Source of the DNA: a virus
Virus genome (UHGV): UHGV-0099607
Reading direction: 5' to 3' (one strand)
Length of the DNA: 15,515 bases
The position numbers are program-made. Within the stretch, counting starts at the first letter, position 1, and the number at the start of each line of letters is the position of its first letter. This document shows positions 12,001-15,000 of this stretch, in pieces.

Positions 12001-15000
12001 CATCCTTGAATAGCCGACACCTTTGCATCTTCCGCATTCTTTCTCAACAACTCTCCCCCACTGCTCTGTTTTTGCTATATCAACCGCACGGCCTGTACCG
12101 TGACAATCTCTGCATCTTGCGCCAGGCGTCGCGGCACTACGGCAATAATCCGCATAAGCGAATGTTGCGAGCACTTGCAGTACCTTTGCCTTAGTATTTC
12201 CTTCGAGCTTTGCCACACCACGGTATTTCCCCGATACCTTGTGTGCAAATTGCATCAGATAGTTGATAGCCTTTTGTTTGTCGTTCTGGCTGAGTTCGTG
12301 CTTACCACAGAATGCAGCCATTCCGAATCCGGCTTGTGATTGCGCCATCCCCATAGCAGCCATCACATCAGTAGCTCCCTGTGTGCATCCAACTGCCTTA
12401 GCAAGTGTTGTTTGAGAGATATTCAGTGACTCTCGATATTTTCGTAGGTTGCTCATATGCCCTCCATAGTAACCATGAAACAATAATACGATATGTACTT
12501 TTAGAATGCAAACAAAAAATACATCTTGTGCATGGATGGTTTTAGTACAGAGCGTAATAATAAGGGTATGAAAATGAAATGGTATGAACTGGCTAGATCC
12601 AGAATGAAAGAGCTCGGCATAACTCAAGAGAAGTTAGCTGAAGAGCTTGGTATGACGCAGGGTGGAATTGGTCACTGGTTGCGCGGATCTCGTCATCCAT
12701 CTCTTGACGAGATTGGTGTGGTGTTTAAATACCTTGGTATTGATAACGTCTCATTCAACCACGACGGTACATTTTCACCTGTTGGCGAATACTCATCTGC
12801 CCCCGTTAAAAAACAATATGAGTACCCTGTTTTTTCTCATGTTCAGGCCGGGATGTTCTCGCCTGAGCTTAGAACCTTTACCAAAGGTGATGCGGAGAGA
12901 TGGGTCAGCACAACCAAAAAAGCCAGTGATTGTGCGTTTTGGCTTGAAGTTGAAGGTAATTCCATGACCGCGCCAACAGGATCCAAGCCAAGCTTTCCTG
13001 ACGGGATGTTAATTCTCGTTGACCCTGAGCAGGCTGTTGAGCCAGGTGATTTCTGCATAGCCAGACTTGGTGGTGACGAGTTTACCTTCAAGAAACTGAT
13101 CAGGGATAGCGGTCAGGTGTTCCTACAGCCACTAAACCCGCAATATCCAATGATTCCATGCAATGATAGCTGTTCCGTAGTAGGGAAAGTTATCGCCAGC
13201 CAGTGGCCTGAAGAGACATTTAGTTAACAGCCTCACCACTCTAAAACACACAACAATAACCCGACCTTAGCGTCGGGTTTTCTTTTTCCAAAATATAAAC
13301 CCATTAAATACAAAGCGTTATAAAAAACTAATTATATTTAGAACATTTTGTATTGACTCGATAAAGTACAAATCGTACTATTTAGCCATCAGCAGGACGC
13401 ACTAACCACCATGAAGGTGAGGCTCTTAAAAATTAAGCCCTGAAGAAGGGCAGCATTCAAAGCAGAAAGCTTTGGGGTGTGGTGAAGCTCAACGGCGAGC
13501 TAGGGAATAGTTTTGCGGTGAAGATTCTAGACAACTAACCGCAGGATGCGCGTAACCCAATCGGCAGCGCACCGATGGAAGCTGGTTCGACTCCAGCCAC
13601 CACACCACCAAAGCTAACTGACAGGAGATGAACATGAAACATAACGAACACTTTATGGCTTGGTTGAAGTCAATGCGTGATGAAGCAAAGCGTCCTGAAA
13701 CAACAATGACGCGAATCGTGGAAATCTTCTCCTGCATCAGCAAGTACGCAACCTGCCAATAACTGTCGGCCCCGCTGAGGGGCCATTTATCTGAGGATGA
13801 TATATGGACTCTCAAACACGCCGCCGCGAACGTCGCGCAGAGAAACAGGCTCAATGGAAAGCAGCAAATCCCCTGTTGGTTGGGGTAAGCGCAAAACCAG
13901 TTAACCGCCCTATTCTCTCGCTGAATCGCAAACCGAAATCACGAGTAGAAAGCGCACTGAATCCGATAGACCTTACAGTGCTGGCTGAATACCACAAACA
14001 GATTGAAAGCAACCTGCAACGTATTGAGCGCAAGAATCAGCGCACATGGTACAGCAAGCCTGGCGAACGCGGCATAACATGCAGTGGACGCCAGAAAATT
14101 AAGGGAAAATCGATTCCTCTTACCTAGTTACTTAGATATTGGCCTTGGCTTTATCTCAATATTATATGGATCATAGCTGGCAACTAATTCAGTCCAGTAA
14201 ATATCCTCAATAGGGAATAATATATGCTTCCCGTTCCATCGGGAAAAAGTTTTGTTCAACACACCAAGCTCAATCAACTCACTAATGTATGGGAATTGTT
14301 TTGATGTAACCACATACTTCCTGCCTTCATTAAGGGCTGCGCACAAAACCATAGATTGCTCTTCTGTAAGGTTTTGAATTACTGATCGCACTTTATCGTT
14401 TTGCATCTTAATGCGTTTTCTTAGCTTAAATCGCTTATATCTGGCGCTGGCAATAGCTGATAATCGATGCACATTAATTGCTAGCGAAAATGCAAGAGCA
14501 AAGACGAAAACATGCCACACATGAGGAATACCGATTCTCTCATTAACATATTCAGGCCAGTTATCTGGGCTTAAAAGCAGAAGTCCAACCCAGATAACGA
14601 TCATATACATGGTTCTCTCCAGAGGTTCATTACTGAACACTCGTCCGAGAATAACGAGTGGATCCATTTCTATACTCATCAAACTGTAGGGGTTGTAATA
14701 GTTTATCCGATTTCTCGCTGTAGGGGTACACGAGAACCACCGAGCCTGATGTGGTTAAAAGACAGGCACAATCTTTACTACCGCAATCCACTATTTAAGG
14801 TGATATATGGAAGAAGAATTTGAAGAGTTCGAAGAGCATCCGCAGGATGTAATGGAACAGTACCAGGACTATCCGTATGACTACGACTATTGATAAGAAT
14901 CAATGGTGTGGACAATTCAAGCGATGCAATGGATGCAAGCTGCAATCGGAATGCATGGTTAAGCCTGAAGAAATGTTTCCTGTAATGGAAGATGGGAAAT

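Follow-up and report, generated by a model that had tools for sequence, protein, structure and literature searches.

A tRNA-like RNA and a conserved microprotein gene in the lambda-type N leader of a defective prophage

The N leader of the prophage

The subject of this report is the early-left region of a defective, lambda-like prophage on the virus genome UHGV-0099607, and in particular two elements in the leader of its N antiterminator gene: a tRNA-like RNA and a small gene for a protein of 42 residues. "The window" is the whole stretch of DNA that was analysed (15,515 nucleotides, nt), and its plus strand corresponds to the leftward direction of lambda. The early-left order on this strand is a cI-type repressor gene (12526-13227), a terminator, a pL-type promoter, nutL and a long-range stem, which is called the clamp here. 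A sequence-only reading of the window had claimed that a 42-residue open reading frame (ORF) and a GC hairpin are inserted in the N leader, that the ORF uses the lambda-type N ribosome-binding site, and that the stem upstream is the equivalent of the RNase III stem of lambda. Its sequence statements and coordinates were checked against the sequence and against an alignment with lambda, and all were correct to the base.

In the alignment, the window is nearly identical to lambda from the transcript start through nutL and the clamp to GGGGTGTG, and the identity resumes at CACACCACCAAAGCTAACTGACAGGAG. The interior of the stem (13485-13597) is not lambda sequence. The first position of boxA, 13421, is G (GGCTCTTAA) whereas lambda has C (CGCTCTTAA); the G is present in all four E. 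coli copies that were aligned. In the clamp GGTGTGGTG (13476-13484) pairs with CACCACACC (13598-13606), and the strands CTTTGG and CCAAAG lengthen the helix to about 16 base pairs (bp) with a bulged A at 13607. The N Shine-Dalgarno (SD) segment CTGACAGGAG follows at 13618-13627. Between this SD and N there is an insert of 175 nt in place of the lambda ATCCAG, with exactly the boundaries that had been claimed (13629-13803), and it contains the 42-residue ORF, the GC hairpin and a new SD. The lambda-type SD is captured by the ORF and N lies behind a GAGGA of its own, 170 nt after the small-ORF ATG, again as had been proposed. The leader RNA folds with z = -4.06, and none of 200 shuffled sequences was as stable.

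With both leaders aligned and folded, the pL start, the boxA and boxB of nutL and the long-range clamp stem are found at the lambda positions, but the leader SD does not directly start N. By promoter, nut site and stem the region is a member of the lambda N-leader family, but by the linkage of SD and N it is not. The equivalence of the stem to the lambda RNase III stem held as far as homology is concerned, since both the alignment and the folds support it, but the stem is not merely that: it also closes a tRNA-like RNA gene. The features are collected in Table 1.

Table 1. Features of the N leader and adjoining genes in the window
Feature	Position	Strand	Basis
pL-type promoter, TTGACT / 17 nt / TACTAT	13353-13381	+	promoter scan; placement relative to the lambda pL transcript start from the alignment
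nutL: boxA GGCTCTTAA 13421-13429, boxB GCCCTGAAGAAGGGC 13437-13451	13421-13451	+	boxB same as in lambda
Clamp stem, 5' strand, GCTTTGG + GGTGTGGTG	13469-13484	+	last 9 nt are the acceptor 5' strand; lambda has the same stem
tRNA-like RNA gene, 135 nt	13476-13610	+	covariation, RNAalifold, covariance model R1 164 bits
Acceptor stem, 9 bp	13476-13484/13598-13606	+	covariation
D arm	13486-13490/13497-13501	+	covariation
Base of anticodon-arm substitute	13503-13505/13556-13558	+	covariation
Distal stem of anticodon-arm substitute	13510-13519/13538-13547	+	covariation
Self-complementary hexamer TCTAGA in 18-nt apical loop, putative kissing-loop dimerisation site	13526-13531	+	palindromic columns
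Long variable arm	13560-13564/13572-13576	+	covariation
T arm, loop TTCGACT	13581-13585/13593-13597	+	covariation
Clamp stem, 3' strand, CACCACACC + bulged A + CCAAAGC	13598-13614	+	fold, lambda alignment
Encoded 3' end ACCA	13607-13610	+	follows acceptor stem
Lambda-type N SD AGGAG, serving the small ORF here	13623-13627	+	lambda alignment; 6 nt before ATG 13634
Gene for 42-residue protein, predicted two-helix hairpin	13634-13762	+	PGAP WP_000682198.1, homologs, dN/dS, AlphaFold
GC hairpin GGCCCC-GCTGA-GGGGCC, then ATTTATCT	13768-13792	+	terminator-like by pattern
New SD GAGGA for N	13793-13797	+	read from sequence; predicted unpaired, P = 0.97
N antiterminator gene (lambda N)	13804-14127	+	BLASTP

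Structure of the tRNA-like RNA

A pattern scan for the element found it in at least 120 viral contigs, from which 67 distinct full-length variants were aligned. In these, 95.3% of the helix cells are paired, compared with 27-48% in slid registers, and compensatory changes are present at 24 of the 38 pairs; none of 500 shuffles reached the observed values. The same six helices were predicted independently by RNAalifold. A second scan with a different anchor found extra variants, in which the acceptor stem and the D loop have new sequences. Several loops and junctions have the same sequence in every variant. G.U pairs are frequent, so the structure is strand-specific, and it lies on the strand that is transcribed with the operon.

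In its minimum free energy fold the window copy is a cloverleaf whose third arm is extended and whose variable arm is long. The D-arm sequence, AGCTC-AACGGC-GAGCT, begins one base past the 5' strand of the stem, and the T-arm sequence GGTTCGACTCC, flanked by GCTGG and CCAGC, directly abuts the 3' strand. The D arm has the GG dinucleotide and the T arm the sequence GGTTCGAnTCC. In place of the anticodon arm there is a long irregular hairpin with an apical loop of 18 nt. GCGCG at 13549-13553 could form a pseudoknot with the variable-arm loop CAGCGCA, where the columns concerned are nearly invariant.

Is this RNA a tRNA? Against the tRNA family (RF00005), the cloverleaf with acceptor, D and T arms, the T loop GTTCRAnnC and the GG of the D loop are all present, but the 7-bp acceptor stem, the 5-bp anticodon stem and the 7-nt loop with a conserved anticodon are not. 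Under covariance model R1, built for the element, the window copy scores 164 bits, and true tRNAs are matched as well, though weakly (13-30 bits). ARAGORN, when introns and relaxed thresholds were allowed, called copies as tRNAs with inconsistent identities (Ala, Thr and Arg). The inconsistent identities and the model scores together indicate that the RNA is tRNA-shaped and not a decoding tRNA. A genuine decoding tRNA, for example a UAG suppressor or an intron-bearing tRNA, would account for the acceptor, D, variable and T arms, for the ACCA and for the occurrence of copies in tRNA arrays, and the window loop UUCUAGA could pass for an anticodon loop in which CUA is the anticodon. This is very improbable, as the loop has 18 nt, the acceptor stem has 9 bp and the identities disagree. 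There is also no conserved anticodon, because the central hexamer changes among seven self-complementary types, and the amber-suppressor reading of UUCUAGA was rejected for the same variation. No bacterial splicing pathway is known for an insert of this kind.

The self-complementary apical loop

The six columns that read TCTAGA in the window form a perfect palindrome in all 67 variants, while slid registers gave 0-2 of the 67. Six hexamers are used: TCTAGA, ACTAGT, TCGCGA, TCCGGA, GCTAGC and ACCGGT. A seventh common type, UCUGGA, came from the second scan and is self-complementary through G.U pairs only, which argues for pairing between RNAs over a site in DNA. As DNA, each of the six hexamers is a perfect palindrome and matches a type II restriction site, and the conserved features might on that account be signals at the DNA level: an att site, an origin, or a palindrome that a protein binds or a restriction enzyme cuts, for example. 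Such an explanation is scarcely credible: the helices tolerate G.U pairs that would be A.C on the opposite strand, UCUGGA is self-complementary as RNA only, and T loop and D loop are hallmarks of tRNA.

Pairing of the hexamer with a partner in the same RNA molecule was considered. CUAG and CGCG do occur elsewhere in the RNA, but the CCGG variants have no such partner and the candidate was rejected. Adjacent loop nucleotides cannot pair with each other within one chain, so the simplest reading is a symmetric intermolecular kissing loop, and the apical loop points to a kissing-loop homodimer.

Occurrence of the RNA and the clamp as a cassette site

The tRNA-like RNA is present in 93 deposited phage records, in none of which it is annotated as an RNA, and in 175 of 5426 complete E. 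coli genomes (about 3%). Among species-representative genomes, true matches were found in Superficieibacter, Klebsiella and Enterobacter, and on one contig of a metagenome-assembled genome labelled Cellvibrionaceae. Copies in N leaders precede lambda-type, P22-type and other N genes, one of them in the P22-like Salmonella phage BIS08P22; at locus L046 a copy is in an early-left leader upstream of an ORF that is not N. Other copies are in late leaders, between pR'-tR' and the holin gene (HK75, L009 and many prophages). The virulent Salmonella phage seszw has one in an intergenic region. At L012 the copy is 5 nt upstream of tRNA-Arg and tRNA-Met, in phage Skate it adjoins tRNA-Ile, and the tRNA arrays of virulent Skatevirus phages carry it as well. 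At L164 and L166 the copy follows a Q-like gene and has an intrinsic terminator on either side. This distribution indicates that the tRNA-like RNA is a mobile module in its own right, which many phages carry elsewhere than in an N leader.

It could be argued that the RNA acts only in cis, as a part of the antitermination or leader system like put or nut, and is not released. Most copies are just downstream of sites where antitermination complexes load, namely nutL, pR'-tR' and a possible put-like leader in L046. This is unlikely in view of the copies in virulent Skatevirus tRNA arrays, at L012 and in the terminator-bracketed units, and the same leader slots hold ordinary tRNA genes in lambdoid phages, for example downstream of Q in the window.

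All sequenced genome-reduced mutants of seszw among the records shown (H65-H111), with genomes down to 35,993 bp, keep the tRNA-like RNA. Their retention of it is weak evidence of importance, because the reduction study targeted genes and not this intergenic element, which the genome-reduction paper does not address.

The two elements of the leader are found separately. In some leaders the RNA is followed directly by N without the small ORF (e.g. H39-H43), and the small ORF is found without the RNA in one E. coli leader with a different interior and in the alleles of 71% identity, which have four other interiors. Clamps were compared in the window (13469-13614) and at L001, L004, L131-L136 and L158. 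Different interiors are enclosed by the same clamp, so CTTTGGG...CACCAAAG is constant and the interior is hypervariable. At least seven unrelated, stably folded interiors were seen (that of lambda, the tRNA-like RNA, VTB97584v and four metagenomic types), together with a short form. The N-leader clamp is a hot spot of cassette exchange.

Such a constant clamp with at least seven unrelated, stably folded interiors would also be seen if the stem were a mere lambda-like RNase III hairpin, the interior neutral filler and the likeness to tRNA coincidental or a dead relic. That tRNA finders and Rfam have no match agrees with this as well. It is nevertheless decidedly improbable, since compensatory changes are found in six helices over more than 80 variants of the tRNA-like interior, several loops and junctions do not vary in sequence, and the copies found in late leaders, in tRNA arrays and between terminators of their own lack the N-leader clamp.

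Several observations were made on related leaders. In the late leader of lambda (L130, 44.7-45.2 kb; compared with L009 and L127) a stem GTTGTGCTG...CAGCACAAC with a shorter interior is exactly where L009 and HK75 carry the tRNA-like RNA. This interior may be a decayed relative without D and T arms, a likeness seen by eye only, and a search of the N-leader and late-leader interiors of lambda with R1 gave no match at E <= 1. The late-leader and Skatevirus copies are preceded by a conserved CACAACAGGT and a hairpin with the strands AAGAGCATT and AGTGCTCTT (L009 5735-5812, L003 about 1395-1500, L044, L117 and L012). The interior of this hairpin varies and sometimes includes a second T-arm-like GGTTCGA; it is possible that hairpin and tRNA-like RNA form a larger composite RNA. 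A TGCTCTT just upstream of the copies outside N leaders was considered as a boxA and rejected, being the 3' strand of the AAGAGCATT...AGTGCTCTT hairpin. L012 also has a second cassette (about 4330-4480) just upstream of the tRNA-like RNA, tRNA-Arg and tRNA-Met, with another interior and the same GTTGTGGTG...CACCACAAC stem.

The small gene and the start of N

The small ORF has its stop at 13760-13762 and its product reads MKHNEHF...ATCQ. Another ATG in this frame, at 13628, overlaps the SD and probably does not serve as a start. PGAP already calls the ORF in E. coli genomes (WP_000682198.1). The complete arrangement is found in only 8 of 5426 complete E. coli genomes. In a large protein collection there are only five clusters, two of which are full-length 42-residue alleles, with 71% and 67% identity. 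These are encoded on six metagenomic contigs, always between a cI-type repressor and nutL leader on one side and an N-type gene on the other; the N-type genes there (Pfam N_peptide) are unrelated to lambda N and begin 36-39 nt after the stop of the ORF. Another allele of the ORF is in front of yet another N-type gene; in all, alleles of 67-71% identity occupy this slot before at least three different N-type genes besides that of the window.

The SD spacing is correct, and the frame is open in the diverged homologs. The ratio of non-synonymous to synonymous substitution rates (dN/dS) between the window allele and the diverged alleles is 0.11-0.21, well under 1, and between L131 and L133 there are five synonymous and no non-synonymous differences. 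The sequence-only reading had made its claim depend on the frame staying open in homologous prophages, which is what was found. A tblastn search of the deposited phages with the 42-residue peptide gave no match. An exhaustive profile search gave ten clusters at E <= 0.001, of which eight besides P0003 look full-length and one is a long repetitive protein. Members of the family mostly have 40-57 residues and the common pattern MKHN(E/Q)H..W/YL..LR.EA....R..EI....A.Y; H6 and I31 are invariant. AlphaFold predicts a two-helix hairpin with confidence (mean predicted local distance difference test score, pLDDT, 89.8). The member with 55% identity (P0006) is among small genes beside integrase and PapB-like genes, and not in an N context.

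These comparisons show that the 42-residue ORF is a real microprotein gene under purifying selection. In lambdoid phages it travels in front of N as a cassette of ORF, hairpin and SD. Could the ORF instead be a translated upstream ORF that gates the hairpin and N, with a peptide that has no function? In lambdoid phages it is always 36-41 nt before an N-type gene, and the spacer hairpin starts 6-10 nt past the stop, where a terminating ribosome would cover its 5' arm. Such a role for the ORF is somewhat unlikely when the purifying selection on the amino-acid sequence and the confident helical-hairpin prediction are considered, together with homologs at 38-55% identity that include P0006, which is not before N. 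The homologs of 55% identity in non-N contexts suggest that the small protein is not merely an N leader peptide.

Two loci give further views of the cassette. In E. coli Ecol_545 (L006, about 1950-2035) ISEc12 breaks N about eight codons past its start, and the small ORF and the tRNA-like RNA are intact. At L158 the sequence GGAGGCAATCATG is present twice, before the small ORF (1494-1506) and before N (1660-1672). The cassette there looks as if it were bounded by a duplicated SD-ATG segment, which hints at a route of insertion.

The arms of the GC hairpin are GGCCCC (13768-13773) and GGGGCC (13779-13784). It matches the pattern of an intrinsic terminator, but the tail AUUUAUCU is a weak U tract, an alternative fold competes and other alleles have no U tract. 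The hairpin is given no firm role and is terminator-like by pattern only. In the BLASTP alignment the N product is identical to lambda N at 105 of 106 residues. Within the small ORF, CTTCTCCTGCATCAG (13726-13740) is complementary to the ORF's own SD region CTGACAGGAGA (13618-13628) and is predicted to sequester that SD; the feature is not kept in the alleles of 71% identity. SD-sequestering structures were rejected as a conserved feature, being neither common to the alleles nor significant.

Other features of the window

On the minus strand (11842-12627) an ORF has a Cro-like N-terminus (MSNLRKYRESLNISQTTLAKAVGCTQGA) and continues in the same frame as lambda Q, from ...TDVMAAMGMAQSQ through to the Q C-terminus. 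This fusion ORF implies a deletion from cro to Q that removed cII, O, P and the nin region, and thus a defective prophage. Genes for tRNA-Thr(UGU) and tRNA-Asn(GUU) are just downstream of the Q remnant (11412-11567, minus strand); this late-leader slot is where other phages carry the tRNA-like RNA. N is followed by a sieB-like ORF (14128-14682, minus strand), as in lambda, and Rfam matches the lambda cIII thermoregulator at 15288-15346 on the plus strand (88.5 bits).

Proposed explanation

The explanation we favour, with a probability of roughly 0.7, is that the region is a lambda-type pL leader in which two independent passenger modules have been recombined. The first is the 135-nt tRNA-like RNA, which is closed by the clamp that bears the RNase III site in lambda. 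The second is the cassette of 42-residue gene, hairpin and new SD between the lambda N SD and N. Because this cassette follows the lambda N SD, the small protein would be translated from the site that normally starts N.

The pL transcript would be cut in the clamp/acceptor stem by RNase III, by the enzymes that process tRNA 5' and 3' ends, or by both. The clamp of about 16 bp, stacked on the T arm, would remain a target of RNase III, and the placement of copies in tRNA arrays implies that the tRNA-like shape may recruit tRNA end-processing. Cutting would release a stable tRNA-shaped RNA of about 135 nt that could form a symmetric kissing-loop dimer and act in trans as a tRNA mimic. The same cut would separate the N/Nus complex bound at nutL from the ribosome-binding sites downstream, as in lambda. 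The small protein would be an early accessory protein that inherits a regulated initiation site, and N, on an SD of its own that is predicted to be accessible, would be subject less directly to translational autoregulation through the leader. Attenuation or stabilisation of the transcript is a possible role of the hairpin.

A number of points weigh against this explanation. Neither ARAGORN nor Rfam (gathering threshold and E <= 10) gave a call for the RNA in the window and six other loci, the stack of acceptor and T stems has 14 bp compared with the 12 bp measured by RNase P, and CCA is encoded in the N-leader copies only. The hairpin is present in other alleles of the cassette but is not kept as a terminator there, the U tract being absent. 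Around the two SDs the local folds differ between alleles, and their stability is not significant (z = -1.67). The small-ORF DNA is 100% identical across all E. coli copies, so the evidence of selection rests on few diverged alleles. Profile searches of Pfam and PHROGs with the small protein gave no significant match (best E-values 0.067-0.27), and the best E-value of a Foldseek search against the PDB was 4; neither kind of search assigns it a function. Processing and release of the RNA, the dimer, action in trans, the role of the small protein and the change in N control are steps that we infer.

A bolder proposal is made tentatively and is rather doubtful. The RNA could be the first known example of a novel kind of non-coding RNA in phages. 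Shaped like a tRNA but without an anticodon, it would be excised by the host (by tRNA-processing enzymes, RNase III or both) from tRNA arrays and from the leaders of early and late operons, form a symmetric kissing-loop homodimer and act in trans on a host system that recognises tRNAs. It might be a decoy for tRNA-targeting defence nucleases or nucleotidyltransferases, for example, or a mimic that binds ribosomes or synthetases. It would then be a small, tractable cousin of GOLLD and ROOL, and the 42-residue protein would be a separate, early host-directed factor.

The N leader of lambda is a textbook regulatory RNA, and its stem is seen here to be a conserved clamp with an interior cassette that is swappable. 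One such cassette is a widespread tRNA-like RNA with a well-supported structure. Being absent from Rfam and from every annotation examined, the RNA constitutes a new small RNA family in well-studied phages. The family ties together leader processing, phage tRNA islands and self-associating phage RNAs in the tractable E. coli/lambda system, and a conserved microprotein on the ribosome-binding site of N offers a natural experiment in which the dependence of N autoregulation on the make-up of the leader can be studied.

Comparison with known systems

The closest system to the leader is that of lambda itself. According to PMC5725501, which cites Wilson et al. (1997, 2002), N in lambda represses its own translation across the structured leader when bound at nutL together with Nus factors, an effect that RNase III modulates. 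The two leaders have in common the pL start, nutL, the sequence of the clamp stem, the SD CTGACAGGAG and N. They differ in the interior, which is 101 nt of lambda sequence in one and the tRNA-like RNA in the other, and in the 175-nt cassette that parts the leader SD from N in the window.

Ordinary tRNAs in the late leaders of lambdoid phages, such as the tRNA-Thr and tRNA-Asn of the window, occupy the same genomic slot downstream of Q. Class II tRNAs, tRNA-Sec and allo-tRNAs resemble the tRNA-like RNA in that their variable arm and acceptor stem are long and their D arm is compact. Ordinary and class II tRNAs differ from the RNA described here, which has no anticodon loop, has an unusual 9/5 geometry of acceptor and T stems and is undetected by tRNA models.

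The tRNA-like domain of transfer-messenger RNA (tmRNA) and the bacterial Y-RNA-like YrlA are also tRNA mimics in which the anticodon arm is swapped for another helix. The present RNA has neither the tag ORF nor the pseudoknot ring of tmRNA; the tmRNA mode of ARAGORN found nothing in it, and only its T arm weakly matches beta_tmRNA (8.7 bits). The 5' and 3' ends of YrlA are on a helix that is not the acceptor, whereas those of the tRNA-like RNA form the acceptor stem. No match was found to a YrlA-type RNA or to any other Rfam family. Literature searches by concept and by sequence strings found no description of the RNA, though a prior description is still possible.

The stable RNAs species 1 and 2 of phage T4 (rnaC and rnaD) are encoded in a tRNA array, where the T4 tRNA cluster ends. 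They have about 120-140 nt and no known function, and their T arm and acceptor stem are tRNA-like. Specific homology to them was not supported, as rnaC (16.1 bits) and ordinary T4 tRNAs (16.0 bits) score alike under R1. No palindromic loop is known in the T4 RNAs.

GOLLD and ROOL are non-coding RNAs of phages and prophages that are often near tRNA islands and have no known function (Kretsch et al. 2025, PMC12286853). In the same study loops of OLE and GOLLD were found to covary between palindromes, which indicated symmetric kissing loops and homo-oligomers, and cryo-EM confirmed these. The tRNA-like RNA shows the same kind of loop covariation with self-complementarity preserved (67 of 67 variants with six palindromes, and the UCUGGA type in addition). 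GOLLD, ROOL and OLE differ from it in being 500-800 nt or more, not tRNA-shaped and unrelated in sequence, and an Rfam search found no GOLLD or ROOL match for the tRNA-like RNA; the RNA has 135 nt, and that it oligomerises is something we infer. By analogy, the RNA seems to work most like the phage tRNA-island RNAs, namely T4 species 1 and 2 and, in the signature of self-pairing, GOLLD and ROOL.

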